Shown: positions 3,836-34,124, numbered from the stretch's first letter. The stretch: DNA of 64,000 nucleotides from an uncultured Candidatus Saccharibacteria bacterium (GCA_964582465.1 CAZOQX010000001.1:17256-81255); one strand, 5' to 3'. Numbers and translations: made by a program. Notes: generated from the letters alone by a model not told the origin.

Positions 3836-5176
3836 CTAGGCTGCCCGGCGATTGATCTGAGAAAGTCCCATCAAGAGGCCAATGGCTGCCCAGACGTGAA
3901 CAATGTAAAGAGTTGAAAAGGTTTGGTACTGGATAGTAGCGCCAACCAAGAAAGCGGTCAGAGCGATGACCCAGAGTTTAAGATCGACGGAGGATGCAAC
4001 TTGCCTGGCCTTTGATAAGGCGGATCGAAGCAAGCTGAAAACAAAGACCATGAACAGTACGAAGCCGACCAGGCCGGTTTCTGCGGCTAGCTCCAAAGTT
4101 TCGTTATTAACGATTGGCCAACCAAAGCCCGGTTTATGATTTTGGGTCACAACGACACCAAAATTACCTGGACCAACCCCCGTGAAGGGGTGAGATTTTA
4201 ACAACTTGAAAGCGGCCCGCCTGGCCCCAGCACGCTCATCTCCGCTACCCTCAAGCCCGGTAGTTTGGACCTGTCTGGTGTAGCTTTTTAACCCAGTAGT
4301 GCGCCGCCCCGAGCTAGAGGCCGGTTTGTTCCAATAGTTAATGAGCAGAAGAGCTGTGATAAGGCTAACCGCCGTAAGCAATGCGACCTTTATGATAGAT
4401 TTTGGCGCCCCCCTGGTCTTGGTTATAAGCATTAGTAGTGGGGCGGCTATGACCACGGCCAAAACGGCGATATTACCACCTCTAGAGACCGTCAGGAATA
4501 AATTTAAGGTGGTGAGAGTGAACAATCCCAACGTCCATTTAGTATTGCGACCGGTCAGGATCTTGCTTGCCAAAAAAGCGATGGGCAAAAGTAAGTAGTT
4601 AGCAAAATAAAGTGGCTCTAGTGCAGTGGATTGGATGCGCGGAAAGCCAAAAAGCTGCCAGGTATAACGTTCGCGCAGAGCAGTAAAATGAGTACTGAGC
4701 CCATATATATCACCAAAGTATTGGTAGAGCCCAAAAAGAGTTACTAGGATTACTGAGGCTATCAGAGCTCGCTCTATTAGGAGGAGATGCTCTTTTTTGA
4801 GTAGAAGTGCTACTCCGATGGCCGATAAGGCTACAAATAGGGTAAACACTACGACCTCGATTGCCCGTGCTCGATTGGTGGAGAAGGGGACTAATACGAC
4901 TAACCAGCCTAGGAAAAGAACGAGCCAGCGAGCAGGCTTTGATTTCCAAGAGACCTGTTTCTTAAGTAGTCGGTAAGCTGCTAGCAGAATTACTAACCCC
5001 GAGATAAACAGATTGGGACGTAGCGTTATTCCGTGGAACTCCCAAGAAGGTATCCGTTCAAAGGGCAAGAGAAATACCAGGAGTGCAATTAAGTAGCCGT
5101 CTGGATCTTTTTTTACTTTATTTAAGAAGCGATTGATAGATTTCAGCATGTTTCTGGGCGATACTTGTCCAATCAA
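3836..5176 (-). CDS. O-antigen ligase / Wzy_C-family membrane protein (tandem paralog)
   Basis: Shares long near-identical motifs with 2471..3835: YFGDIYGLSTHFTALRERYTWQLFGFPRIQSTALEPLYFANYLLLP versus YVGDLAGLSTHWTLLRGQYTKAVFGFPRVQSTALEPLYFANYLLLP. The start is uncertain and may be the internal Met at 5149, because the ORF overlaps the upstream GT1 gene. Confidence 0.75.
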   Translation of the reverse strand: MIGQVSPRNMLKSINRFLNKVKKDPDGYLIALLVFLLPFERIPSWEFHGITLRPNLFISGLVILLAAYRLLKKQVSWKSKPARWLVLFLGWLVVLVPFSTNRARAIEVVVFTLFVALSAIGVALLLKKEHLLLIERALIASVILVTLFGLYQYFGDIYGLSTHFTALRERYTWQLFGFPRIQSTALEPLYFANYLLLPIAFLASKILTGRNTKWTLGLFTLTTLNLFLTVSRGGNIAVLAVVIAAPLLMLITKTRGAPKSIIKVALLTAVSLITALLLINYWNKPASSSGRRTTGLKSYTRQVQTTGLEGSGDERAGARRAAFKLLKSHPFTGVGPGNFGVVVTQNHKPGFGWPIVNNETLELAAETGLVGFVLFMVFVFSLLRSALSKARQVASSVDLKLWVIALTAFLVGATIQYQTFSTLYIVHVWAAIGLLMGLSQINRRAA

Positions 5177-6209
5177 AATTAGAAGCTAGCTTGAGCGCGC
5201 TCGACCTTATTAGTTTAGATAATTCTGGATGCTCAAGCAATTCGTTGACTACACTGGCGATGGTTGCGGGTTGATTATTTTCTAAGGTTAAACAGTTCTC
5301 GTGGTTACGGAGGGGTTGAACAGCCGGCCCCGTGGTGATAGAGGGAACTCCGTGGACAAGTGCGGCGATCAAGCTGCCTCGACGCATGGAAACCGGTTGA
5401 TCGTAGGGGAAAACGGCTAGGTCAGCTAGCTGGAAAAGGGTCGAAATTTCTTCTTCAGGCAGGAAGCCCGTCCAAACCACTTGCCCTTGAGATTCTTCAA
5501 CGGCTTTTTGGATTTCTCGGTGAAATTCATTTGCTGGATCAAAGTGAGTAGCAAGGAGTAGCTTTGTCTTATCAGTCCAGCGCTTAGTTGATTCAATTAA
5601 TTCTTTCACTCCTTTACTCGGATCAATAAAGCCGAAATAGATAGCCAACTTTTGGCCTGAAAGGCCGTAGCGGCGACGTAGTTTTTGCTTTAAAGCAGAA
5701 CTAGCTGGGATCACCCCGATATTGCTCCCAATGGGTATGTGGACCAATCTTTTCCAGGGCAGGAGAAGCTTAATTTTTTGAAAGGACTCGGGGTTTGGTA
5801 TGACGATGGCGCTGGCAAAGAAAATTGTAACGAGAACGCGAACCTTGCCCAGCCACGACGCGTCGTGATATTCGTGGGCTCTGATAATGACAGGAAATTG
5901 CGGGAAACGAAGACGCAAAATGAGTGGTAGAAAATTAATAAAGGGCTTCTTTCCGTACGGCACCGCTGGGTATTCGATGTGGATGATGTCGGGTCCCTCT
6001 GATTTCACTGCCCGCAGAACTATTCCAGTGGCAGCCCAGGTCCACTTCGGAACAGCCGGCATGGACCAATCATCTTGCATCGCTTGAGTTGATGTTAGTA
6101 TGCGCACACTGTGCCCTAAGGCGCGTAGGGAAGTTGAAAGCTTAACGGTTCCTTCGGATACGCCGCATTTTATCGGTGGATAAGACCCGGAAATCATCAA
6201 TATTTTCAT
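5118..6209 (-). CDS. Glycosyltransferase family 1
   Basis: N-terminal KILMISGSYPPIKCGVSEGT GT-B N-domain motif. Size and architecture are typical of GT4. Confidence 0.8.
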   Translation of the reverse strand: MKILMISGSYPPIKCGVSEGTVKLSTSLRALGHSVRILTSTQAMQDDWSMPAVPKWTWAATGIVLRAVKSEGPDIIHIEYPAVPYGKKPFINFLPLILRLRFPQFPVIIRAHEYHDASWLGKVRVLVTIFFASAIVIPNPESFQKIKLLLPWKRLVHIPIGSNIGVIPASSALKQKLRRRYGLSGQKLAIYFGFIDPSKGVKELIESTKRWTDKTKLLLATHFDPANEFHREIQKAVEESQGQVVWTGFLPEEEISTLFQLADLAVFPYDQPVSMRRGSLIAALVHGVPSITTGPAVQPLRNHENCLTLENNQPATIASVVNELLEHPELSKLIRSSALKLASNFDWTSIAQKHAEIYQSLLK

Positions 6210-6778: not shown

Positions 6779-7815
6779 GGTGCCCTCCAGACTTGGGCGC
6801 CACTATTTTCGAAGTGAAACGGTACAACCTGAGCGCCCGCCTCTTCCATGGCACGCATAATGGCCGGACGCTTCGTAAATGGCACAAAAAGAAGCAAAAA
6901 ACCTCCACCCCCAGCTCCGAGTATTTTGCCGGCCAGGGCTCCCGCAGACAGGGCGGTTTTATATAGAGAATCAATCCGCTCGTTCGTTATTCCCTTAGCC
7001 AAGTTTTGTTTTGCCATCCACCCGGCATTCAGACCATCGGCGAAGCCATCTAGGCGCCCAGTTAGGAGGGCCTCTTTCATGTCAAAGGCCAAGCTCTTAA
7101 TTTTTTCCAGAGCTTCCAGCGATTGAGTTTTTCCGGATTTGTACCCCGCCACCTGCCTCTCTAAAATGCCCCAAGACTCGCGAGTGACACCGGTGTAGCA
7201 AAGTAGCAGCGATCCATGGAGCTCGTTTAAGATGTTGTTGTGAATTCTAAGCGGGTTCACAATAACTCTGTCTTCAGATAGGAATTCAATAAAATTGAAC
7301 CCGCCGAAGGCTGCAGCGTACTGATCTTGCATCCCTCCGGCCTGCTTTAGCTCAACACGCTCAACCCGGTAAGCCCGTTTTGCTAGTTCGTATGTATCCA
7401 TGGTTGATTTAGTTAATTCTGCAATCGCCGCTAGCATTGCTACCACTAGAGCACTGGAGGAGCCAAGTCCAGACCCCGGCGGGGCATCCGAAAACAGGTA
7501 CAGATCTAGCCCACGGCTAGGGGAGAGGTGCTTTACTACGGCCTTCACGAGATCTAAATCCCCGTCGAATACCAGCTCCTCTGGTTTTTTATAATGGGCC
7601 GTTTTGCCATCACCCAAAAATATCCGATACTGTTTATCGGTTCGTAGGTAGACGGTTGCAAAGGCGTACATATCGATGGTAGCCGAAAGCACACATCCAC
7701 CGTGTTCTTCAAGATAGGGCGCGACATCTGTCCCTCCGCCAGCGAAGCTAATTCGAAGTGGCGCCTTTGCCCGTACCGGGTGACCCAGATCGGCCTTCAT
7801 CTTTCGCTCCAACAT
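6775..7815 (-). CDS. GHMP-family sugar kinase, most consistent with D-glycero-D-manno-heptose 7-phosphate kinase (HddA-like)
   Basis: GHMP motifs APLRISFAGGGTD and PPGSGLGSSSALVVAML. Translationally coupled to gmhA. Confidence 0.65.
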   Translation of the reverse strand: MLERKMKADLGHPVRAKAPLRISFAGGGTDVAPYLEEHGGCVLSATIDMYAFATVYLRTDKQYRIFLGDGKTAHYKKPEELVFDGDLDLVKAVVKHLSPSRGLDLYLFSDAPPGSGLGSSSALVVAMLAAIAELTKSTMDTYELAKRAYRVERVELKQAGGMQDQYAAAFGGFNFIEFLSEDRVIVNPLRIHNNILNELHGSLLLCYTGVTRESWGILERQVAGYKSGKTQSLEALEKIKSLAFDMKEALLTGRLDGFADGLNAGWMAKQNLAKGITNERIDSLYKTALSAGALAGKILGAGGGGFLLLFVPFTKRPAIMRAMEEAGAQVVPFHFENSGAQVWRAP

Positions 7816-23690: not shown

Positions 23691-23719
23691 TTGACCACTG
23701 AGCTGCCGACGGATATAAT
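23691..23719 (+). promoter_or_regulatory. Sigma70-like promoter upstream of tRNA-Asn (TTGACC-17 nt-TATAAT)
   Basis: ttgaccactgagctgccgacggatataat, about 38 nt upstream of the tRNA 5' end. Confidence 0.55.
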
Positions 23720-23757: not shown

Positions 23758-23832
23758 TCCGGGGTAGCTCAGCGGTAGAGCAGTTGGCTGTTAACCAATT
23801 GGTCGGAGGTTCGAATCCTCTCCCCGGAGCCA
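23758..23832 (+). tRNA. tRNA-Asn (anticodon GTT), CCA encoded
   Basis: Manual cloverleaf. Acceptor tccgggg/ccccgga. D-stem gctc/gagc. Anticodon stem gttgg/ccaat with loop cuGUUaa. T-arm ggagg-ttcgaat-cctct. 3' gCCA. Confidence 0.9.
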
Positions 23833-23842
23833 TATGGAACGG

Positions 23843-23868
23843 GAAGCCTCAACTAGGGCTTCTTTTTC
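23843..23868 (+). terminator. Rho-independent terminator after the tRNA (GAAGCC-8 nt loop-GGCTTC-TTTTT)
   Basis: Hairpin gaagcctcaactagggcttc followed by ttttt. Confidence 0.6.
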
Positions 23869-24002
23869 CTTTGTGGAGCCATTTTCTGCCATCTCGTCAC
23901 GTAAAGTTCTCTAACAGGGGGTGGGTGCATCTAGCGCCCGCCCCCTGTGCCACTACAGGGTCTTGTGGCGGTAAGCATTTCCTTGTATAGTTCTCGATTA
24001 AC

Positions 24003-24791
24003 ATGAAGTTATACAGTCCCAAAAATCATCGATGGTACGATCAGATGATCGAACGAGGGTACTCAGAAAAAAACGAAAAATACAGTGTTATCTACCCTAA
24101 CGGCAATCAATCTCAGATATTTATTCATACTCTTATTGCTACCGGTGGTAAGCGAAAGAGCATACTTGATATAGGCTGCGGTTACGGAAAGTATACCCAA
24201 ATGCTGGCGAGTAAGTATGGGGAGGTAGTAGGACTTGATTTGTCCGGAAACTCAATTGATTATGCACTGAAGCACTATTCTGCCGACAACATTAAATATA
24301 TTGTAGCTGATTCGAGCAAACTGCCATTTGCGGATTCAGCTTTTGATGTTGTTTTTAGTCGGCTTAGCCCTCATAACCTTGAAGAAATGAAACGCGTACT
24401 TAAGCCGGGCGGATTGGCGTTGTGCATGCGTGTAGGCGAAACCGACGCGCTAGAATTAAGGGGTGCTTTTGGCCAAAGACAGATGGTGACAAAAATGCAG
24501 GGCTACGTTAGGCGGGGAGAACGGCACAGTCAACATATTGTCGATGAATGGAAGAAAAATGGGTTTACCAAACTGCAGTGCAAAGAATATGAGTACGAGA
24601 TGATTTTTCGATCAACAGATGACTTAGCTAAGTATTTATCCCGTATCCCGATCGTGCCTGAGTTCAACGAGCATAATCCAGCCCACATGAAGAAGCTATC
24701 GGGTTACGTCGAGCGAACGGCAGCGACAAACCAAGGTCGGGTTATATTGCCACGGCACCGCTATATTATCGAGGGGTACAAACCGGCGTGA
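24003..24791 (+). CDS. Class I SAM-dependent methyltransferase (Methyltransf_11/25-like)
   Basis: Motif I ILDIGCGYGKYT and motif post-I VVGLDLS. Small-molecule MTase architecture. ATGA overlap with the next gene. Confidence 0.8.
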   Translation: MKLYSPKNHRWYDQMIERGYSEKNEKYSVIYPNGNQSQIFIHTLIATGGKRKSILDIGCGYGKYTQMLASKYGEVVGLDLSGNSIDYALKHYSADNIKYIVADSSKLPFADSAFDVVFSRLSPHNLEEMKRVLKPGGLALCMRVGETDALELRGAFGQRQMVTKMQGYVRRGERHSQHIVDEWKKNGFTKLQCKEYEYEMIFRSTDDLAKYLSRIPIVPEFNEHNPAHMKKLSGYVERTAATNQGRVILPRHRYIIEGYKPA

Positions 24792-25951
24792 TGGAGCTAT
24801 CTTTTAAGAACTTCAAACCCAAGCTCACTCCGGCACTAGAGAGAGCATTGCGCGACAGTTATCAACTCTCTATAGAAGACGTTGGCTTTACGGACGTGCT
24901 TTTTCAAGAACCTATCGCTTCAACAAAACATCCGCATTCGCGGTGGAACGAAGCTATCGATATTTCCGGATATGTAACAAAGAGCGTCAAATTACGATTG
25001 CCAGTCGCTAGCTCTAGTATGCCAGGTGTAACAAACTACGAAATAGCCACAAAGATTGGCGAGGCAGGTGGTTTAGCTACCTTGTCACGCGAAGACAGCA
25101 TAGAAGAATTAGAAGAGCTTATAAAAAGGCTCTGGGCATACAAGTTTCAGAATCAACCATCCAGTCCGTGGTTTGCCGGAGCAGTAGGAGTTTACCCCCG
25201 TACAGGACCAGCCGCAATCGAAAGAGTAGACAGGATGGTAAAACTTGGCGTAGAAGTGCTTTTCATTGAAACTCAGCAAGCAAATTCCGCCCTTGTCTTA
25301 GACTTCTGCAGAACTGTTAAGAATAAATACTCTAAATTGGAAGTGGTAGTTGGAGTATTCAACAGCGTGGATGGTGTAAAGAGAGCTATCGAGTCCGGCG
25401 CCGACGGTGTCAAAGTCGGCATAGGGACAGGGGATGCATGCCTAACAACAACCATGTCTGGAGTTACAAAAGGACAAGTAAACACCGTCTTTGAGCTAGC
25501 AGATTACATGAGTGGACCCCAAGCTGTGCCTGTAGTAGTAGATGGAGGCACTTCGAGCCCTGGCGGAGCCGCTATAATGATGGCCGCACTGAAAGGCCAT
25601 GGCTGTATTATGCTCGGCTCAAAGATTGCCGCTACGCTGGAGTCGCCAGCAGCCAAGATCCACAATAGTAATAACGGAATCACTTCGACCGAAGCAGTCA
25701 TAGAGGGCATGGGTTCCGAGCCTATAGCCGCAAGGCGTAATGAGCCGAAGAACCAGCGGATCCTGGAGGGCACGGTTGTTACTAGAGCGGTTGTAGAAAC
25801 GATTGGTGATTTACTACTACGCTACGAGGGGGGCTTTCGAACTGCTATGTATGGCTATCATGGTGCTTTGAGCTGGCAACAGTTGGCAGATAGAGCTGCT
25901 TTGAGTCTTAATAGTCCTGCCAATGTTATAGCTCGCTATCATGATCGCTAG
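24788..25951 (+). CDS. IMP dehydrogenase / GMP reductase-family TIM-barrel enzyme lacking the CBS subdomain
   Basis: N-terminal FTDVLFQEPIASTK...MPGVTNYEIATKIGEAGGLATL parallels IMPDH FDDVLLVP...MDTVTE...GG. The catalytic-loop-like GIGTGDACLTTT keeps the Cys. VPVVVDGGTSSPGGAAIMMAALKGHGCIMLG parallels VPVIADGGI..GDI.KALAAGA..VMLG. Confidence 0.65.
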   Translation: MMELSFKNFKPKLTPALERALRDSYQLSIEDVGFTDVLFQEPIASTKHPHSRWNEAIDISGYVTKSVKLRLPVASSSMPGVTNYEIATKIGEAGGLATLSREDSIEELEELIKRLWAYKFQNQPSSPWFAGAVGVYPRTGPAAIERVDRMVKLGVEVLFIETQQANSALVLDFCRTVKNKYSKLEVVVGVFNSVDGVKRAIESGADGVKVGIGTGDACLTTTMSGVTKGQVNTVFELADYMSGPQAVPVVVDGGTSSPGGAAIMMAALKGHGCIMLGSKIAATLESPAAKIHNSNNGITSTEAVIEGMGSEPIAARRNEPKNQRILEGTVVTRAVVETIGDLLLRYEGGFRTAMYGYHGALSWQQLADRAALSLNSPANVIARYHDR

Positions 25952-25952
25952 C

Positions 25953-26600
25953 CTATTTCTCTAAAAAATAGGCGGTGGCCTGCTTTACATGGTCAGTAAA
26001 CGGCCCCGCCGATAAATCAAAAAAAGGATATCCCTTGGATTCAGCACTTTTTGCCAGTTTTCGATTCGCCAAAACAAGTGCGTTTGCCCAAGACCTTATA
26101 TTCTCCAGAGCATTTGGGTCAAGCCGATGCCACCAATTTATCCAATCAGAGGGGGTTTTCCGGGCATGGCTCAGTATGTTCTCCACATGATTAGAATCAG
26201 TAAAGCCAACAAAAGCTGCTTTGATTTTGAACTCTTTAGACTGAATCTTACTGACCCACTCAGGGGTAATCAATTGACCTTCAATAGCCAGGTTGGACTC
26301 ATATCTTTCGTAATAACTAATAACCCCTAATATTGCTTCACGAAGTAGGTCGTGAATCTCCCCCTTTTTTGAGAAGTGCACTTTTTCAATAGGCATTCCT
26401 CGAAGATTGGTCTCAACTGACCCCTTGAAAGACGCTTTGCCAACAAGCCGGCGGAATTTATTTCCGACCAGAACGTACCTAAAGCTGTCCTCCATAGCAT
26501 CGGACGCCAGGAAGGGCATCGGTGCTTGGCTGACAACCCTTTTCATAATCGTTGATTTGCCGCTTCGAGGCGAGCCCCCCAGTAGGTAAAGCGTACGCAT
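25953..26600 (-). CDS. P-loop NTPase, kinase-like (AAA_33/zeta-toxin/CPT-like fold suspected)
   Basis: Walker A LLGGSPRSGKST at the N-terminus and a downstream acidic FLASDAM. Size 215 aa. The convergent stop is 1 nt from the IMPDH-like gene stop. Confidence 0.6.
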   Translation of the reverse strand: MRTLYLLGGSPRSGKSTIMKRVVSQAPMPFLASDAMEDSFRYVLVGNKFRRLVGKASFKGSVETNLRGMPIEKVHFSKKGEIHDLLREAILGVISYYERYESNLAIEGQLITPEWVSKIQSKEFKIKAAFVGFTDSNHVENILSHARKTPSDWINWWHRLDPNALENIRSWANALVLANRKLAKSAESKGYPFFDLSAGPFTDHVKQATAYFLEK

Positions 26601-26642
26601 AGATAAAGTTTAGCAGTGCACTTGGATATGCCATAATCATCA

Positions 26643-27482
26643 ATGATGCGAAACCTCTACAACTATGTTGTCCACGGAACACCCTCGGCGAAGGATGCGG
26701 AAGACATACTGCAAAACGGATTTAAAACCGAAGCAGGACGAGCTACTGTATCAGCTGATCTTCTATTCGCCGTCGAGGCGGCTTCTTTGCCAGAGATGAG
26801 GGAATGGAGCCGTCGAAACGCAGTGATTGAAGAAGGAGAGGTGGGTCGCGTCCTAGTTATAAAAGTTCCCAAGGAACTGGGGCTCGATTACGCAGCTGGA
26901 CCAGCCCTGGACATTGATCATAAGCTGAAAGTAATTTCGGGAGACTACCCGCGGTATCGCTACGGCGAAAGACAGTTAGCTTTTTATGGCGCTCCGAAAA
27001 ATGAAAACATTTTGGTCCGGGCGGAAAATATCCTAATCAGCCTTGAGCCTTCCTCGAAGCTTCATGATGAGCTCACTAGCCTCTGGCAGCATACTAGAAA
27101 TCTCGACCCTTTAGACTTAGAATCACTTCTCAGCAAAATAGAAACAGAGGTGATGAGCAATAGCAATAATTTTGTAGCTCAGGGTGTTGACCTCAAGTCG
27201 GTTTTTCGAGAGCTGCTCAACACTACCGTTGAGACAACCTTGAAGAATTATTTCCGGGCACTTTCTATGGATACAAAAATTGCTTTAGGTTACACGGCTG
27301 TGAGTAATGACCCCAATGTCCAGGTTAGGCCTAAGACGGTCAGTACTCTAAAGGGGCAACTAGAAGACATAAAACGAAAAAGCGAGGCCAAGGGCTTTAG
27401 GATTGTGAGCGTCGAACTGTCTGCGTACATCAAAGTAAACACCACCGAGTTGCTGGAGGAGATTCAAGACGCTACAACTTAG
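26643..27482 (+). CDS. Hypothetical 279-aa protein
   Basis: Long ORF with no recognisable motif. Its 3' end overlaps the convergent P-loop gene by 11 nt. Confidence 0.5.
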   Translation: MMRNLYNYVVHGTPSAKDAEDILQNGFKTEAGRATVSADLLFAVEAASLPEMREWSRRNAVIEEGEVGRVLVIKVPKELGLDYAAGPALDIDHKLKVISGDYPRYRYGERQLAFYGAPKNENILVRAENILISLEPSSKLHDELTSLWQHTRNLDPLDLESLLSKIETEVMSNSNNFVAQGVDLKSVFRELLNTTVETTLKNYFRALSMDTKIALGYTAVSNDPNVQVRPKTVSTLKGQLEDIKRKSEAKGFRIVSVELSAYIKVNTTELLEEIQDATT

Positions 27483-28014
27483 CTAGAAAATCGGTAGCTT
27501 CCTCCACGGTGCCAAATTTAGGAACGCCCTGTTCTCGCCACCTCATAATCCATTCGCGGTGCTTCTTGATCTCGGTTTCATCTGCTCGAATAGCATTTGG
27601 AGTTGATTCCCTCTCTCTAATCCAATTCCTGTGCGTTTCCCAGTCTGGCACGACAATTGCATCTGGTTTCAGCCACGCATTTGAGGCCCCGATTACCCAA
27701 AACCCCATTCTTTTAGCTTCCTCAGTGATAACATCGCACCTTTGTTGGATCTTCTTGATAACAGTCATGTCTTCGAGCCACCACGCTCCACCGGGATGAG
27801 CATTCGTTATTTGCCATAGTAGATCGCCATCAAGCCAGTGCCGTTCGCGCTGGGCTCTGACAAATCGAGTTTTACCACTCCCAGAAGGGGCTAGAACAAA
27901 GAGGCCTTTATTGTGGCGTACAAATTTCTGACCCAGACTTTTATATATATCCGCACCGTCTGCAAATGTAAGCGGGATGTTTAGATCGAGAAGCTTGTGT
28001 TTATCTGATGGCAT
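27472..28014 (-). CDS. P-loop NTPase, small kinase-like protein
   Basis: Walker A FVLAPSGSGKTRFV. 180 aa. Divergent from and abutting the histidine phosphatase gene. Confidence 0.55.
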   Translation of the reverse strand: MPSDKHKLLDLNIPLTFADGADIYKSLGQKFVRHNKGLFVLAPSGSGKTRFVRAQRERHWLDGDLLWQITNAHPGGAWWLEDMTVIKKIQQRCDVITEEAKRMGFWVIGASNAWLKPDAIVVPDWETHRNWIRERESTPNAIRADETEIKKHREWIMRWREQGVPKFGTVEEATDFLAKL

Positions 28015-28719
28015 ATGGGCATTTTAGCATCAATGATAGTCTCGTTTTGCTATTATGAAATAATGCCAGAAGCTAAGGTAGTTTATTTGGTGCGTCACGG
28101 CCAGAGCGTGGATAATGCGGCTCGTGTGTTTCAGTCGCCAGATTCCCCCCTTAGTGGGATCGGTCAGGAGCAGGCGAAGAAACTAGCCCAAAGGCTTTCT
28201 GGGCTTACCTTTGACGCTCTTATTAGTAGCCCCTTCGAGCGAGCCAAGGGAACAACAGCTTTTATTACTGATCGTATCGGGCTAGTCACTGAGTACTCTG
28301 AACTTTTCGTTGAGCGGCTTAAGCCTAGGGGAATCTCTGGCAGGCCTTATGCTGACAAAGAGATCCATGGATTATGGCGAAGTTGGGAAGAGAGTCTTTA
28401 TACACCAGGCACGAGAGTCGAAGATGGTGAGAATTATGATGATCTGCTCGAAAGGGCCGATAAGGCTTTGGCGTATCTCAAAAACAGGCCTGAAGAATCA
28501 ATGCTGGTTGTCACGCATGGTGATTTTCTGAGAACAGTGTTGGCTAGAGTACTGCTAGGTGAACTTTTTTCAGGAGAAGCGCTTAGAAACATTCAGAAAG
28601 TTGCACTTATTGATAACTCCGGTATTACGGCGTTACGTTTTCAGAAAGCATATGATGAAGTTGCAAGGTGGAGACTTTGGATTTATAACGACCATTCACA
28701 TTTAGCTGACCCAACTTGA
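28015..28719 (+). CDS. Histidine phosphatase superfamily protein
   Basis: VVYLVRHGQSVDNAARVF (RHG motif) and VVTHGDFLRTVLA (second catalytic His). The start may instead be the internal MPEAK Met at 28063. Confidence 0.75.
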   Translation: MGILASMIVSFCYYEIMPEAKVVYLVRHGQSVDNAARVFQSPDSPLSGIGQEQAKKLAQRLSGLTFDALISSPFERAKGTTAFITDRIGLVTEYSELFVERLKPRGISGRPYADKEIHGLWRSWEESLYTPGTRVEDGENYDDLLERADKALAYLKNRPEESMLVVTHGDFLRTVLARVLLGELFSGEALRNIQKVALIDNSGITALRFQKAYDEVARWRLWIYNDHSHLADPT

Positions 28720-28743
28720 AAATCGTACCTCAAGCCGAGCCAT
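28715..28743. repeat. 29-bp perfect direct repeat, copy 1 (cttgaaaatcgtacctcaagccgagccat)
   Basis: Identical to 30520..30548. It overlaps the stop codon of the histidine phosphatase gene. An adjacent small hairpin GGCTTA-tt-TAAGCC sits at about 28753..28766. Confidence 0.8.
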
Positions 28744-28772
28744 GTATAATTCTTGGCTTATTTAAGCCATTC

Positions 28773-30440
28773 TCACAAATTCACTATCGCTGCCTGCCCG
28801 TCCGTAAAGAACTGGTCGCCGCTAGCGTTTTTGCCAAGTTGTGGTTCTACCACTCGGAGATAAGAAATGCCCATGAGGCCGAGTGATCGAACAATATAGT
28901 CCCGTTCGGCATCAACATTGGGGTTTATATGGTGAGTTGGCAGGTAGCCTTGACTGGCCAGCTCCACACCCTCATCTAGGCTGGCCGTGGCTACCCAAAC
29001 CAACTGTCCATTGGGCGTAGCATAGTTGGTCTGCCAGAGCCTAGTATGATGGCGCTGACGTAGAGTCCGCCCACTAGTGGGTTGCTCGAAGGCAAGGTCT
29101 TGGGGTTTACCGTTCAAGTAAGAGGGCGTCACGGGAGCGGTTAAATACTGGCGGTTCTGCAGCGCCACTCCAATCGCTTTTAGGGTGTTAGCCAGGGTCG
29201 ATGGGTCTGCCTTATACCAACCGTGAGACGAGAACAACTGCTCAATTTGCTCTCTTGAGCCCAGGTAAATGAAGCTAATTGGCTCCATCCGCGTCCCGGT
29301 CAGAGTCTCACTGTATATTGGCAGAGCTTGAATGGTCGAAGCAGTTATCGCGGGTAAGGTCTGGTAATTAGGCGTGGCTGTAATTGGTTCCAGCTTAATA
29401 AAGAAAGAACTGAGCCCGATTGACCAAACAATTAACATTACCGGAATCGTAGCGAGAGCTTTTCTACCAGTTGACTGTTTTTCTCGGCTGTAAAAGCGCC
29501 GCCAGATTTCATAGCCAGTTATCAGTACGGTTAACAGGAAGCCGCCGAAGAGGATGCTGGCCAACACGTCGCTCGGATAGTGTACGCCCAGGTAAATCCG
29601 GCTTAGAGCCACCAAGCTAATTGCCACCACATAGCCTAAAACTACGGCTATTTTAGCTAAATGCGATTTGTAGGCCCGAATCAGAAAATAGGCTAACAGG
29701 CCAAATAAGACGGTAGCGCGCAGGACGTGCCCACTAGGAAAGCTGAGCGTATCCTCACGAATCAAGCTAAGGGTTTGCTCTGGCCGCGCCCGACCTACTA
29801 GGTGCTTAATGACAAAAGTGCTGACTTCTTCAAGGACAAAGGCAAGCCCAAACAGCCAGGCAGCCCCGCGCTGGCGCTTGATCCATAGCCAAATGCCTGC
29901 AAGCAGTGTCAGCAGCAAAGCTGTTTCCCAGTTAGCTAAGAAGGTCACCATTTGGAAAAAGCCGTTTTGCTGCCCACTCCGAATACTGGGTACGAGGTTA
30001 ACCACTCTTTGATCAATCCGGGTAATCCCGGTCTTTAGCACTACTTGAATTAACAACTGGAGGAATTCCGCTAAAAGGCCAGCGGCCATTATTACTCCCA
30101 CCGTCATGACTAGCCCTCGTGGTGATTTGGGATTAAGACGATCGCTAAGCCAGTTCATAACAGCTGTTTGGCGCAGCTTGCGCACGTTATCATTGCCAAT
30201 GGCACCTCGCCAGGCCGAGACTAAAACCGAGCCAATGATTTGAAGAGGTTTTCGAAGTGCTAAAACTGCTAAGTAAACCACTGTCACCAGCAGTAGATTT
30301 TCGATCAGGATGCCGAGCACAAAAACGGGCGGCGAGCTGAAGACATCGAGCTTTTTTATGAGCCAAAGGTTAAAGCCGGCCGCAAGCAGCAAACCTAGAC
30401 CGAGTAAGCCGTAGCCGGTTGTTTTAATATGGCGGTGCAT
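28773..30440 (-). CDS. PAP2-superfamily phosphatase (membrane) fused to a large C-terminal extracytoplasmic domain
   Basis: PAP2 motifs KxxxxxxRP-like (VGRARPEQ), PSGH (SFPSGHVLRATV) and SRxxxxxHxxxD (SRIYLGVHYPSDVLAS) in the N-terminal TM half. About 300 aa of non-PAP2 domain follow a further TM. Confidence 0.8.
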   Translation of the reverse strand: MHRHIKTTGYGLLGLGLLLAAGFNLWLIKKLDVFSSPPVFVLGILIENLLLVTVVYLAVLALRKPLQIIGSVLVSAWRGAIGNDNVRKLRQTAVMNWLSDRLNPKSPRGLVMTVGVIMAAGLLAEFLQLLIQVVLKTGITRIDQRVVNLVPSIRSGQQNGFFQMVTFLANWETALLLTLLAGIWLWIKRQRGAAWLFGLAFVLEEVSTFVIKHLVGRARPEQTLSLIREDTLSFPSGHVLRATVLFGLLAYFLIRAYKSHLAKIAVVLGYVVAISLVALSRIYLGVHYPSDVLASILFGGFLLTVLITGYEIWRRFYSREKQSTGRKALATIPVMLIVWSIGLSSFFIKLEPITATPNYQTLPAITASTIQALPIYSETLTGTRMEPISFIYLGSREQIEQLFSSHGWYKADPSTLANTLKAIGVALQNRQYLTAPVTPSYLNGKPQDLAFEQPTSGRTLRQRHHTRLWQTNYATPNGQLVWVATASLDEGVELASQGYLPTHHINPNVDAERDYIVRSLGLMGISYLRVVEPQLGKNASGDQFFTDGQAAIVNL

Positions 30441-30519
30441 ACCATTAAGTTTATTCTTCCTAGGCTTAATTGACGAGCTACGATAACCCGTATTGTGGCT
30501 TAACTCAAGCCGCTGGAGC

Positions 30520-30548
30520 TTGAAAATCGTACCTCAAGCCGAGCCATA
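30520..30548. repeat. 29-bp perfect direct repeat, copy 2
   Basis: Same 29-mer as 28715..28743, located in the 5' leader of the PAP2 gene. A related hairpin GGCTTAACTCAAGCC lies immediately upstream, and a local 9-mer ctcaagccg is reiterated. Confidence 0.8.
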
Positions 30549-30620
30549 AAGAACGGGAAGATACCCCAAGTCCACCTTCGGGGCTCATCAAAGCTATGCT
30601 TGTGATGTAGAATATGTGGC

Positions 30621-31676
30621 ATGAGGGTTAGGCCGAAATATTTTGGAAGTATTGCGGTTTTGGCGGTTCTTTATGTTATCGCAGCCAAATTAGGGTTATC
30701 GCTAGCATTTAGCATTAAGCAAGTCACTACCGTGTGGCCGCCTAGTGGGCTGGCTCTAGCGGCCTTGCTTCTATTTGGACTCGATCTCTGGCCGGGCGTG
30801 GCCATTGGGGCCTTTGCAGCTAACTTCCTAACTAATGAGCCGGCATGGGTGGCGGTACTGATTGCGGTTGGCAACACCCTGGAGGCCCTGGTGGGTGCGA
30901 GTCTTCTAAAACGAATCGTTGATTTTAAATCAACCTTACATCGAGTGAAGGGGGTGGTTGGGTTAGTTTTTTTGGCAGGGGTCTTAAGTACGATGGTGGC
31001 TGCCACCATTGGCACTACAAGTCTACGGCTGGGTCATTTATTAACAAGCGGAGCTCAACCGAGTGCCTGGCTTCTTTGGTGGTTTGGTGACATGACCGGA
31101 GTATTGCTCTTTGCGCCTTTTCTGCTGGTGTGGCTAAGCAATTGGCGCCAGGTTACTCGCCAAAAACTTCTCGAATTTGGCGCCTTACTTATGGGGACAT
31201 TAGTGGTGGCCGAGATTACCTTTTTTGGCCAGCTGAAGGTTTTAGGAAACCGGCCGCAGGTTACCTACTTAATTTTTCCTTTCGTGATTTGGGCCGCTTT
31301 CCGTTTTAGACAGCTGGGCGTGACGGCGGTTAGCTTAATTACAGCTACTGTGGCGATACTTGGAACGATCAACGGCTTCGGCCCTTTTCTGGGGGTAGGG
31401 ACACCGCAGCAACAGCTGGTTACCCTACTGCTTTACATCATTTTCATGACCATCAGTGGTCTGTTGATGGGTGTGGCCGTGTTGCAGCGCGATAACTCCG
31501 AATCCAAGCTTGTGCAGCAAGCAGCCGCCCTACAAAAAGCCCGCGGCAAAATCTTAAAGGAACTTAATGCTAAATCGGCTAACGAGGAGCGCCTTGAGGC
31601 TTCGAATGAGCGAATTACGAGCATACTCAGCCACTTGCTAGAGGAAAACCCCACTCGGCCCACCTTTAAAAAGTAA
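30621..31676 (+). CDS. MASE1-domain integral membrane sensor-like protein with C-terminal coiled coil and no output domain
   Basis: N-terminal ...KQVTTVWPPSGLALAALLLFG matches the MASE1 signature (VTPIWPPSGIALAALL). About 8 TM helices. The C-terminal ~70 aa are helical and charged. Confidence 0.6.
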   Translation: MRVRPKYFGSIAVLAVLYVIAAKLGLSLAFSIKQVTTVWPPSGLALAALLLFGLDLWPGVAIGAFAANFLTNEPAWVAVLIAVGNTLEALVGASLLKRIVDFKSTLHRVKGVVGLVFLAGVLSTMVAATIGTTSLRLGHLLTSGAQPSAWLLWWFGDMTGVLLFAPFLLVWLSNWRQVTRQKLLEFGALLMGTLVVAEITFFGQLKVLGNRPQVTYLIFPFVIWAAFRFRQLGVTAVSLITATVAILGTINGFGPFLGVGTPQQQLVTLLLYIIFMTISGLLMGVAVLQRDNSESKLVQQAAALQKARGKILKELNAKSANEERLEASNERITSILSHLLEENPTRPTFKK

Positions 31677-31958: not shown

Positions 31959-32004
31959 GATTTATACTAACTCAGATTTGTTTCTTGCGTGGTATATTTA
32001 AGCC

Positions 32005-32214
32005 ATGCAAAAGATTGCTACCCGCGTATTTATCTACTCTTCAATTGCTTTTGGTATTATCGGAATTTTACTAGTGATAGCATCCCCCGGGCAGGGCGAA
32101 AAAAGCTCAGGCCTAAACATCGCATTGATGAAGCTGTTGATGGCGACGGGCTTTATTGTTTTGCCCTCGTTTGCACTAAGTGTTGCCAGCAAGTACCTAA
32201 ACGGCAAGTCTTAA
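32005..32214 (+). CDS. Small two-TM membrane protein (69 aa)
   Basis: Two clear hydrophobic helices. Followed by a G/C-rich segment and T-run (ggggcgttttttt) at about 32250..32268. Confidence 0.4.
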   Translation: MQKIATRVFIYSSIAFGIIGILLVIASPGQGEKSSGLNIALMKLLMATGFIVLPSFALSVASKYLNGKS

Positions 32215-32293: not shown

Positions 32294-32695
32294 TTGAACA
32301 ATTGGCTTATCTGCCTAGAAGCACCTGAGGAGCCCAAAGTGAATGAGATTGTGGACGCGATCAAGCAGTTGCACCAGCCAATCGAAGGGTGGCGCGAGTG
32401 CGAGCACAATACCCTCGGCGAATGGTGCCCAAGCGTGGAGATAGGGAAACACGGCCCTTGTTGCGGCGACGACCCGGCTGGCGATTACAGCCGAAGTGGC
32501 AGCTCACAGGGGGGGCGAATTCCCGTCCCGGTCTGCGGGCACTGTCTGGTGGGATGGGTCGGAGCTGATCTGCCCGACGACATTGATCGCGAGGCTGAAG
32601 TGGCCTGGGTGGGCGATCGGAGCGATGGATGGTGGCACCGGGTCTGGCCGTGCCCGACGGTACAACTTCTGAATCCCGAGGCACCAATTGGGTAA
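32294..32695 (+). CDS. Hypothetical Cys/Trp-rich protein in GC-rich (~65%) segment
   Basis: ORF with CxxC-like pairs (GPCCGDD, CGHC). Composition differs sharply from the neighbours. The start is uncertain. Confidence 0.3.
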   Translation: MNNWLICLEAPEEPKVNEIVDAIKQLHQPIEGWRECEHNTLGEWCPSVEIGKHGPCCGDDPAGDYSRSGSSQGGRIPVPVCGHCLVGWVGADLPDDIDREAEVAWVGDRSDGWWHRVWPCPTVQLLNPEAPIG

Positions 32696-32993
32696 GAAGG
32701 CTGTCGAGAAACTAGCAAGTCGCATTCTGCGCGAGCACCGCCCAATTCCGATTTCTGACGGTGACGTCCTCGTTCATTCTCCTCACTGTCGGGCTGAAGA
32801 AAGAGAGGCCGCCAAGGAAAGCCCCACTTCGACTAATAATCTCGAAGAATGGGCCGTCTATTGGGGCAAGCCATGCCAGGATCCAGGTTACCCCGACCCC
32901 TTCTGCAGTAAGTGCCTGGATGGGAATGAGCTGAATTACGTTGCCTGGCCGTGTGACGCCGCCCGCTTGGGACAGTTTGTACTGGGCCGCTGA
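32688..32993 (+). CDS. Hypothetical Cys-containing protein in the same GC-rich segment
   Basis: Overlaps the previous ORF by 8 nt and has multiple Cys (HCRAEE, CQDPGYPDPFCSKC). Coding status is uncertain. Confidence 0.3.
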   Translation: MGKKAVEKLASRILREHRPIPISDGDVLVHSPHCRAEEREAAKESPTSTNNLEEWAVYWGKPCQDPGYPDPFCSKCLDGNELNYVAWPCDAARLGQFVLGR

Positions 32994-33152
32994 CGCGCTG
33001 AGCTTCCCTAGATCACCTGTACGGTCGGCACACTGTACGGGTGTCGACTTGAGGTTTTAATTGGTTGAAGCTTCAAGTCGCTATGTGGTAACTAATGGCC
33101 AGGTCCTTAGTATGTCGGTCTTTTGTTATACTGGGACCAATAGGAGAGACCT

Positions 33153-34124
33153 GTGGCCGAAGATATCAATGATGACGAGATTTCGGAAAAGGAGCCTGAG
33201 CAGGGTTTCAGTAATGACTATGCCGCTCTAACCCCAGAAGCCGATCCTCCAAGTAGCACGCAGCCTGTTGCTGGCGAAAAGGAAAATGTATATGAGCTCT
33301 ACTCTGGAATTTGTGATGTCATAAGTCCAGAGCAGGCTCGGGCCATGGCTGACGAACTGCGACAGAATCGTAAGGATCCAAACCGAAAGGTCATGATTGG
33401 AGTTATGGCCGGGCATTTCAGTTTGAGGCCCGATGAAAACGACCCAGGCGGCCAGCGAACGGTTTTCCCAACAAGGGAGGAAATAGCCTTAGGCTTCACC
33501 GATGATCCTGACGTGTTAAACACAGTGCACTTTGCCGACTTGTATAGACCCAAGGAAGCACAAAATCTATTGGACGACCTCGAGTTGGTGGTCCAGTACG
33601 GGGGTGAGCATTTACACGCAATTCAGCTCGATGTCACTTGGCCTGATCCCGCCGAGATGGATAAGTTTAGAGAAAGACACCCTGAGTTGAAAATCATTTT
33701 GCAGCTCGGGAAGTTTGCTTTCGACGAAGCCGATAATGATCCAGATGAAATCGTAAAGCAGCTTGAAAAGTATGGTGATTCCATTGATTACGCCCTGTTA
33801 GATCTGAGCATGGGGAAGGGCAAGGCTATGGAATCAGTGGGGCTATTACCGATACTTCGAAAAATTCGCCAAGAACTCCCTGGCCTGGGGCTTGCCGTAG
33901 CGGGGGGCTTAGGGCCTGAGTCGTTGGACGTACTTGAGCCCATAGCACGTGAATTTCCGGATATTTCTATCGATGCACAAGGGCGGTTAAAGCCGGCCGA
34001 TTCACCCGTAGACGCTTTGGGACATATGGTTTCAACTATTCCGGCGGATTTAGAGCGCTCGGCCGAGTACATCCGTAGAACTAGTGCCATGTTGGATAAT
34101 CCGAGGGAAGAAGAACGTGATTAA
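33153..34124 (+). CDS. Phosphoribosylanthranilate-isomerase (TrpF)-like TIM-barrel protein with ~90-aa acidic N-terminal extension
   Basis: Parallels Thermotoga PRAI: AIQLDVTW ~ AVQLHGEE; ALLDLSMGKGKAMESVGLL ~ ILLDTKTPEYGGSGKTFDWSLI; LAVAGGLGPESL ~ LVLSGGLNPENV; SIDAQGRLK ~ AVDVSSGVE. GTG start with an AGGAGAG SD. Confidence 0.5.
   Translation: MAEDINDDEISEKEPEQGFSNDYAALTPEADPPSSTQPVAGEKENVYELYSGICDVISPEQARAMADELRQNRKDPNRKVMIGVMAGHFSLRPDENDPGGQRTVFPTREEIALGFTDDPDVLNTVHFADLYRPKEAQNLLDDLELVVQYGGEHLHAIQLDVTWPDPAEMDKFRERHPELKIILQLGKFAFDEADNDPDEIVKQLEKYGDSIDYALLDLSMGKGKAMESVGLLPILRKIRQELPGLGLAVAGGLGPESLDVLEPIAREFPDISIDAQGRLKPADSPVDALGHMVSTIPADLERSAEYIRRTSAMLDNPREEERD

Follow-up and report, generated by a model that had tools for sequence, protein, structure and literature searches.

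The 64,000-nt stretch of bacterial DNA analysed here (the window, which throughout means this whole stretch) carries a single tRNA gene, a tRNA-Asn identified with ARAGORN. Six tightly packed genes of varying orientation follow it, and beyond them a membrane phosphatase gene lies between direct repeats. A preliminary description of this locus had proposed that the six genes act together, either in making a modified purine nucleotide or as a defence system. The evidence set out below points instead to a segment of 6.8 kb that was probably assembled piecemeal at the tRNA 3′ end. Its features are as follows, with positions counted from the first nucleotide of the window.

23691-23719, plus strand: candidate sigma-70-like promoter of the tRNA gene (TTGACC-17-TATAAT; 11/12 consensus positions, a consensus match only)
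23758-23832, plus strand: tRNA-Asn (GTT) with encoded CCA (ARAGORN; Rfam RF00005, 72 bits); the proposed integration target
23827-23846, plus strand: proximal copy of an att-like direct repeat, GAGCCATATGGAACGGGAAG, made up of the last 6 nt of the tRNA and 14 nt of flank
23841-23864, plus strand: terminator-like hairpin and T-run immediately 3′ of the tRNA
23914-23948, plus strand: perfect 15-bp, GC-rich hairpin (CAGGGGGTGGGTGCA...) in the methyltransferase leader (leader z-score -3.3)
24003-24791, plus strand: class I S-adenosylmethionine (SAM)-dependent methyltransferase (MT), 262 aa; first gene of a conserved pair
24788-25951, plus strand: divergent IMPDH/GMPR-family barrel without CBS domain, 387 aa; likely ATG start at 24791
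25953-26600, minus strand: kinase-like P-loop NTPase, 215 aa, Walker A GGSPRSGKS; apparently an independent cargo gene
26643-27482, plus strand: 279-aa protein with a predicted N-terminal ADP-ribosyltransferase (ART)-like fold (about residues 7-135; HGT and GRATVS motifs) and a C-terminal helical domain
27472-28014, minus strand: small P-loop protein of kinase fold, 180 aa, Walker A APSGSGKT
28015-28719, plus strand: histidine phosphatase, branch 1, 234 aa as called; probable start at 28063
28715-28743, plus strand: 29-nt perfect direct repeat, copy 1, overlapping the phosphatase stop codon
28773-30440, minus strand: membrane PAP2 phosphatase fused to LssY_C, 555 aa (Pfam); putatively a separate cassette
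30519-30547, plus strand: 29-nt perfect direct repeat, copy 2
30541-30560, plus strand: distal copy of the att-like repeat, GAGCCATAAAGAACGGGAAG, identical at 18/20 positions; proposed distal island boundary

The sequence itself shows how these genes adjoin. The MT stop and the start of the IMPDH-like gene overlap (GTGATG), the convergent stops of the IMPDH-like and 215-aa P-loop genes at 25951/25953 are spaced by 1 nt, the 3′ ends of the 279-aa and 180-aa genes overlap convergently by 11 nt (27472-27482), and the divergent starts of the 180-aa P-loop and histidine phosphatase genes abut as CAT/ATG at 28014/28015. All gene coordinates, orientations and tight junctions in the preliminary description hold, with the phosphatase start as the sole caveat: its His_Phos_1 domain begins at residue 23 and the internal Met17 (28063) is the likelier start, so the ‘abutting’ divergent starts may be an artefact of calling the longest open reading frame (ORF). 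The tRNA had been credited with its own promoter and terminator, and a promoter-like site (by consensus match only) and a terminator-like hairpin are indeed present; the 29-bp repeat said to flank the PAP2 gene is exact (28715-28743 = 30519-30547). Pfam agrees with the domain calls for the methyltransferase (Methyltransf_11/25), the IMPDH-family enzyme (PF00478), the histidine phosphatase (His_Phos_1) and the PAP2 protein (PAP2 plus LssY_C), and both P-loop proteins have a Walker A motif and a kinase-type fold. The 215-aa, 279-aa and 180-aa proteins had no match above cutoff in Pfam, NCBIfam, PHROG or PDB sequences, and the PDB searches returned noise.

The segment behaves as an accessory island at the 3′ flank of the tRNA, as supported by its att-like repeats and deviant composition. 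The proximal 20-mer has one further match at three or fewer mismatches in the 64 kb, at 30541-30560, where 2.7e-4 would be expected by chance. The 29-mer terminates in GAGCCAT, the same as the tRNA 3′ end, and each of the two repeats is confined within the window to the island junctions. These junctions read tRNA...GAGCCAT/ATGGAACGGGAAG (J1), 29-mer...GAGCCAT/GTATAATTC (J2) and 29-mer...GAGCCAT/AAAGAACGGGAAG (J3), and J3 is a hybrid that combines the left side of J2 with the right side of J1, the tRNA junction. This is the three-junction pattern that two tandem site-specific insertions with a shared arm would leave. At 0.467 versus 0.508 +/- 0.017 (rank 0.3%), the GC content of the six-gene block (23847-28714) is the lowest that any 4.9 kb of the window has. 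GC content at third codon positions (GC3) is 0.40-0.49 in its six genes and 0.55-0.65 in genes further upstream (rhamnose, NUDIX, VanW and LexA). The PAP2 gene has a host-like composition (GC3 0.545). The segment combines adjacency to a tRNA 3′ end, a matching repeat at its far boundary (18/20) and deviant composition, and no integrase was found among the ORFs tested between 17.9 and 38.5 kb.

The 29-mer itself is laid out much like the 3′ end of a tRNA, with a 5-bp stem (CTTGA/TCAAG), a 10-nt loop and a 7-nt acceptor-like stretch, CCGAGCC. Possibly the cassettes carry it as a degenerate piece of a tRNA. An imperfect 28-nt direct repeat (75% identity; 28743-28770 and 31979-32006), which ends in TTTAAGCCAT, has one copy directly after the first 29-mer and the other 3.2 kb downstream, and could mark a further junction or be due to chance.

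Relatives of the island proteins occur in similar settings elsewhere (codes L001-L100 denote our comparison loci of relatives). In a Candidatus Taylorbacteria sequence, a lone 217-aa P-loop gene, homologous to the 215-aa gene of the window, lies between a tRNA-Gln and a 19-nt sequence that repeats the 3′ end of this tRNA exactly (L095:7874-8850), forming an integrase-less, single-gene cassette of 0.9 kb. At L001:6474-13516, and likewise in L002 and L009, a 64-nt direct repeat (89% identity, E 5.5e-16) connects the 3′ end of a tRNA-Gly with a site 7 kb off, abutting a tRNA-Arg; it encloses homologues of the MT and IMPDH-like genes together with a nucleotidyltransferase, a CofE gene, a ParE-like toxin gene and small ORFs, and in L001 a pseudo-tRNA 3′ fragment lies between the repeat copies at about 7549-7590. 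The flank of a tRNA-His is repeated 135 nt upstream of MT in L005, and in L097 the homologue of the 180-aa P-loop gene begins 252 nt past a tRNA-Gln. In three lineages the MT-IMPDH-like pair is accompanied by att-like repeats, each time at a different tRNA. The earlier suggestion that the tRNA 3′ flank is an island site is therefore borne out by the repeats, by the deviant GC content and by the same cargo at other tRNAs in other lineages. We also noted that a large serine recombinase is called in L002 at 4594-6183, just past a tRNA-His.

Judged from protein similarity, the host appears to be an uncultured member of the Patescibacteria (candidate phyla radiation, CPR) that is distant from sequenced relatives. 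The best relatives of LexA, whose gene adjoins the tRNA, are at most 55% identical and come from Parcubacteria, Nomurabacteria and other Patescibacteria metagenome-assembled genomes, and the few named sources of island-protein homologues are Taylorbacteria, Saccharibacteria and Uhrbacteria. Patescibacteria have minimal metabolism and depend on hosts. The island families are rare and sporadic among them. The six genes did not prove to be core housekeeping genes in conserved synteny, the finding that would have spoken against the original suggestion.

We next consider which of the genes are inherited together. The IMPDH-like protein belongs to a small family: among 5.8 billion clustered proteins it has 16 clusters of at least 51% identity, followed by a gap down to true IMPDH at about 30-35%. 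All members are from metagenomic or uncultured sources, and a pattern scan of species-representative genomes with this family confirmed zero relatives. An MT homologue (53-60% identity) lies directly upstream of the IMPDH-like gene in L001-L006, L008-L010, L092 and L093, either 1-22 nt away or overlapping it by a few nucleotides. The preliminary description had suggested checking whether these two genes co-occur, and they are adjacent in every related locus with enough sequence except L094, which holds the most divergent member of the family (51% identity) and where the contig ends within the upstream ORF. None of the loci that carry the pair contained any of the other four window genes, and the families of the 215-aa protein (8 clusters) and the 180-aa protein (55 clusters) have homologues that stand alone in unrelated neighbourhoods. 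From these neighbourhoods, only MT and the IMPDH-like gene appear to travel together, and the idea of a six-gene toolkit or pathway does not survive. That nucleotide-type genes lie tightly packed behind a tRNA is not in itself enough to define a pathway or a defence system.

The neighbours that the pair has elsewhere are of several kinds: a convergent NTP_transf_2 nucleotidyltransferase in four lineages, a CofE-type ligase in three (L001:12080-12868; L005:12065-12847; L092:2996-3769), and a NUDIX hydrolase with a MoaA-like radical SAM enzyme in one. The CofE-type ligase of L001 scores above the TIGR01916 equivalog cutoff (197.9 versus 180.65). To our knowledge, coenzyme F420 is not expected in CPR-like genomes. 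The surroundings at L094:851-7386 look nucleotide-centred in another way, with the IMPDH-like gene between two LOG/SLOG-like genes, two radical SAM/SPASM genes and a 499-aa orphan, and with no methyltransferase in the immediate neighbourhood, the partial ORF at the contig end aside.

The IMPDH-like protein matches PF00478 over residues 54-378 with 164 bits (cutoff 25.6). It has no match to the CBS domain (PF00571), and a helical segment of about 35 aa takes the place of the Bateman insert. It scores well below the curated equivalogs, both for IMPDH (TIGR01302, 136.8 versus a cutoff of 481.5) and for GMPR (TIGR01305, 80.2/492; TIGR01306, 49.1/466; NF003470, 77.9/397). Residues were assigned by profile alignment to solved IMPDHs together with a joint alignment with seven reference IMPDH/GMPR sequences. 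Cys218, Thr220 and Glu327 are invariant in the 16 family members and align with the catalytic residues of IMPDH and GMPR; every IMPDH and GMPR has the corresponding triad (Cys319/Thr321/Glu431 in T. foetus numbering; PMC2525682). Also conserved are Asp252 (DGG), which binds the ribose, and LGSK, the phosphate loop. Other positions depart from the family. In the loop GIGTGDACLT an invariant Asp216 occupies the position of the phosphate-binding Ser, and IMPDH YRGMGS is replaced by IEGMGS, with a nearly invariant Ile305 at the position of the Tyr, which like the Ser is a side-chain ligand of the 5′-phosphate. The flap, whose alignment is inherently uncertain, is 11 residues shorter at the ‘DRY’ columns of IMPDH and has no Tyr after the conserved Arg317; a GMPR-like sequence has a gap at the same columns. 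In IMPDH, Arg418 makes the covalent intermediate hydrolyse a thousand times faster; GMPR has no Arg-Tyr dyad, and its flap is truncated (PMC2525682).

These features suggest that the enzyme links its Cys covalently to C2 of a purine-type ring and works with NAD(P)(H). Rather than an ordinary GuaB, it would be akin to a reductase, or to a slow ‘ancestral-type’ dehydrogenase, whose 5′ pocket is altered. Its partner matches Methyltransf_11 (6e-21; 75.3 and 72.8 bits for Methyltransf_11/25) and has a DIGCGYG motif. The nearest named matches of MT are all sub-threshold, namely RlmA (guanine N1; 74.5 versus 303), phosphoethanolamine N-methyltransferase, BioC and UbiE, and by its sequence MT looks like a class I enzyme of the small-molecule type. 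The most economical reading of the pair, and a plausible one, is redox at C2 and methylation of a purine nucleotide or nucleoside, where we infer both substrate and product. Pathways for nucleoside natural products are known to employ GMPR-like enzymes (PMC6112128). The modified-purine idea put forward for all six genes is accordingly plausible for these two, and fails for the six, which are not co-inherited.

The family of the 279-aa protein has 59 representatives, sporadically distributed and 25-39% identical. The predicted fold of the protein (pLDDT 91.6) is probably that of an ADP-ribosyltransferase, and the family would then represent a new branch of the ART superfamily. The HGT and GRATVS motifs lie on the first strands and are conserved, including H11-G12-T13 and S37. 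Compared with the H-Y-E/R-S-E triad of ARTs, no conserved Glu was found, and Gln111 is the sole candidate. PDB profile searches, Pfam searches with 18 N-terminal domains and Foldseek recovered nothing that would support an ART fold. The N-terminal lobe of Tpt1 has no counterpart here: the ART-like domain already begins at residue 7, the alignment extends over just 81 residues, and helices make up the C-terminal half. Tpt1-type ARTs transfer ADP-ribose to phosphate groups, attacking NAD+ with a phosphate (PMC9503650, PMC6182162). Given the ART-like fold, the second half of the island would point to NAD+/phosphate chemistry rather than to purine tailoring.

Of the two P-loop proteins, the 215-aa one has weak matches only, to AAA_33, CPT and Zeta_toxin. 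In the window’s 180-aa protein, YDGG, a motif near-invariant in its own family, is lost through a 3-residue deletion, which could reflect either decay or altered specificity. The 180-aa homologues of L097 and L100 likewise have a convergent gene overlapping their 3′ ends, in L097 by 11 nt as in the window. These overlapping partners (L097:6548-7429 and L100:6530-7522) form an orphan family of 293-330 aa with 38% mutual identity. Seen by eye, an RHG...H pattern raised the thought that they might be histidine phosphatases, and a relationship to the 279-aa protein was likewise considered; hhalign and BLASTP supported neither. The window’s own histidine phosphatase scores 109.6 bits against PF00300 and has the RHGQS and VVTHGD motifs, with all NCBIfam equivalogs below cutoff.

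We therefore propose, with somewhat more confidence than doubt, that the 6.8-kb segment is a mosaic island built up as one integrase-less cassette after another integrated at the tRNA-Asn 3′ end, and not one six-gene system. It would consist of two tandem elements sharing one recombination arm, a low-GC six-gene element (23.85-28.74 kb) and a 1.8-kb PAP2/LssY_C cassette. Recombination at the GAGCCAT core would yield the empty site tRNA-Asn...CCGGAGCCATAAAGAACGGGAAGATACCCC and the circular junction ...CTTGAAAATCGTACCTCAAGCCGAGCCATATGGAACGGGAAGCC. The cargo would comprise at least three independently inherited units. Unit A would be the translationally coupled SAM methyltransferase and IMPDH/GMPR-family enzyme, in which a Cys adduct at a purine-type C2 would permit NAD(P)-linked redox and either the product or the substrate of that step would be methylated, giving a tailored purine nucleotide or nucleoside. 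Unit B would be the protein of ART (Tpt1-like) fold, convergently overlapping the small kinase-fold P-loop gene, with the divergent histidine phosphatase alongside; with low confidence, we suggest an NAD+-using transfer to a phosphorylated acceptor that the kinase would make and the phosphatase remove. Unit C would be the stand-alone, kinase-like 215-aa P-loop protein. One can go further and suppose that Cys218-dependent C2 redox followed by N- or O-methylation yields an undescribed purine, for example of a methylated xanthine or isoguanine type, that serves as an antimetabolite, signal or antiviral analogue and is spread among Patescibacteria on small, integrase-less tRNA-3′-end cassettes, here beside a new ADP-ribosyltransferase-fold family. 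We regard this extension as speculative and, taken as a whole, unlikely.

Several observations weigh against the mosaic island and the reading of its parts. None of the 20 ORFs tested between 17.9 and 38.5 kb (7 of them without any Pfam match) encodes an integrase or recombinase domain, so mobility must be provided in trans or be ancient. The outer repeat shares just 6-7 nt with the tRNA and has two mismatches. A scan of species-representative genomes for LexA returned 80 loci of at most 55% identity, with neither synteny nor a tRNA-Asn, and the MT-IMPDH-like pair of L004 and L092 has no tRNA in the sequenced flank. Within unit B, the partner of the 180-aa homologue in L097 and L100 occupies the same overlapping position and is unrelated to the 279-aa family of the window. 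As for the pocket in unit A, the loop Ser is Ala in 2 of the 7 reference IMPDH/GMPR sequences, so Asp216 need not imply lost phosphate binding.

The reading closest to the original suggestion, in which all six genes form one system for synthesis of a modified purine nucleotide or for nucleotide-depleting or nucleotide-modifying antiphage activity, would account for the very tight packing and the low GC that the genes have in common. Each product plausibly handles nucleotides, phosphate or NAD+, and the neighbours of the IMPDH-like gene elsewhere are also nucleotide enzymes, though different ones. We nevertheless consider it improbable, given the inheritance pattern of the other four genes described above, an alternating orientation that precludes a single operon, and the missing near-invariant motif in the window’s 180-aa copy. 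PADLOC-DB v2 assembled no system; MT gave a generic methyltransferase-domain match to mad2 and the 215-aa protein a match to mad8 (E 0.003). PHROGs had nothing informative for the island proteins, and a viral contig collection contained no relatives of the IMPDH-like or 180-aa P-loop families, the two that were scanned. No known defence system in PADLOC is matched, and a viral origin finds no backing from the two families scanned. A narrower version, in which the ART-fold protein, the 180-aa P-loop protein and the histidine phosphatase form a toxin-immunity or abortive-infection module, with the ART as an NAD+-dependent toxin that its partners neutralise or reverse, fares better and is still doubtful. 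ARTs are frequent in conflict systems (PMC9503650), the genes sit on a presumably mobile island, and the 279-aa family is sporadic and fast-evolving, at the 25-39% identity given above. However, besides the missing PADLOC and PHROG matches, these genes are convergent or divergent whereas toxin-antitoxin pairs are usually co-transcribed, there is no clear catalytic Glu or Gln-x-Glu motif, the 180-aa P-loop family is paired with an unrelated protein elsewhere, and the window copy departs from its own family consensus at several conserved positions.

Two further explanations would do away with the island or its cargo as we read them. If the IMPDH-like enzyme were simply the host GuaB or GuaC used for purine salvage and the rest were unrelated core kinases and phosphatases, the PF00478 match and intact catalytic triad would follow, and CPR proteins are often very divergent from reference enzymes. 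Such a housekeeping role is very unlikely, since the scores fall far under the NCBIfam IMPDH and GMPR cutoffs (136.8/481.5 and 80.2/492), the family amounts to 16 clusters in 5.8 billion proteins with no relatives in the species-representative scan, and the gene shows methyltransferase coupling (L094 excepted), placement at three tRNAs in three lineages with att-like repeats, and deviant composition. The repeats, in turn, could be regulatory or terminator-like motifs or local duplications rather than recombination scars, with a low GC content that is gene-specific. The lack of an integrase and the overlap of the outer repeat with a terminator-like hairpin speak for this, as do other low-GC kilobases in the window, for example at 34-36 kb. 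What makes it quite improbable is that neither the 20-mer nor the 29-mer is found in the 64 kb outside these junctions, that the hybrid J3, with its left arm from J2 and right arm from J1, is what site-specific recombination predicts, and that independent loci have the same tRNA-end duplications around homologous cargo.

Other features of the region were noted in passing. The Rfam search of 23.4-31.0 kb gave no RNA family besides the tRNA. The hairpin in the methyltransferase leader lacks a T-run, has no match in Rfam and is not shared by the leaders of relatives; a riboswitch or conserved leader 5′ of the methyltransferase was rejected, as there was no Rfam match and the relatives’ leaders do not align. 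Just outside the island, 30621-31676 encodes a MASE1 membrane sensor domain with a coiled-coil tail and no output domain. Several ORFs at 32294-34124 have no Pfam match, including two small Cys/Trp-rich proteins and a 323-aa protein, and GC content drops again at 34-36 kb (0.43-0.46), so that this part of the window may be accessory too.

The occurrence, in four independent loci, of integrase-less cassettes that are bounded by repeats and lie at tRNA ends suggests a simple, under-described form of gene flux in reduced genomes, and accessory nucleotide chemistry on mobile cassettes bears on how Patescibacteria compete or defend themselves. If our reading of the pair is right, a branch that keeps the triad, has an altered pocket and flap and is coupled to a methyltransferase would add a new reaction to a family counted among the best understood in nucleotide metabolism, and possibly a new modified purine.

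On sequence grounds, the MT-IMPDH/GMPR-like pair appears to be an uncharacterised, discrete branch of a well-known enzyme family. With IMPDH/GMPR (PF00478), including TubD and ToyE of 7-deazapurine pathways (PMC6112128), the window enzyme has in common the barrel, the Cys-Thr-Glu triad, the DGG Asp and the GS phosphate loop, and it is like GMPR in having no Bateman/CBS insert and a short flap. It also has its place amid nucleotide-tailoring genes. It differs from the characterised members in its identity of about 30%, scores below curated cutoffs, loop Asp, Ile-Glu and lack of an Arg-Tyr dyad, as well as in its operon with a class I methyltransferase and its restriction to a handful of uncultured, mostly CPR-like lineages. 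Unlike the TubD and ToyE pathways, it has no 7-deazapurine genes nearby. The two P-loop proteins share Walker A with small-molecule and nucleotide kinases (gluconate, shikimate, adenylate and thymidylate kinases; AAA_33, CPT and Zeta-toxin-like proteins), whereas they are without family-level sequence membership and are mutually unrelated. The 279-aa protein resembles Tpt1/KptA and the ART superfamily in the HG[TS] motif on its first strand, with further matches to ART toxins; unlike Tpt1/KptA, it has no N-terminal RNA-binding lobe, hence no context for the Arg-His-Arg-Arg tetrad, and it has an extra C-terminal helical domain.

As a tRNA-associated genomic island, the segment is of a kind that is already known, and what is unusual is that it has no integrase and very small cassettes. 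It departs from classical tRNA-integrating islands in that no integrase was found in or near it, in its tRNA overlap of 6-7 nt, in cassettes of 0.9-7 kb (one with a single gene) and in its reduced-genome Patescibacteria host. With classical islands that grow by tandem accretion it shares the location at a tRNA 3′ end, the direct repeats that take in the tRNA terminus, a second, internal repeat that delimits a sub-cassette, the deviant composition, and cargo that recurs at other tRNAs.

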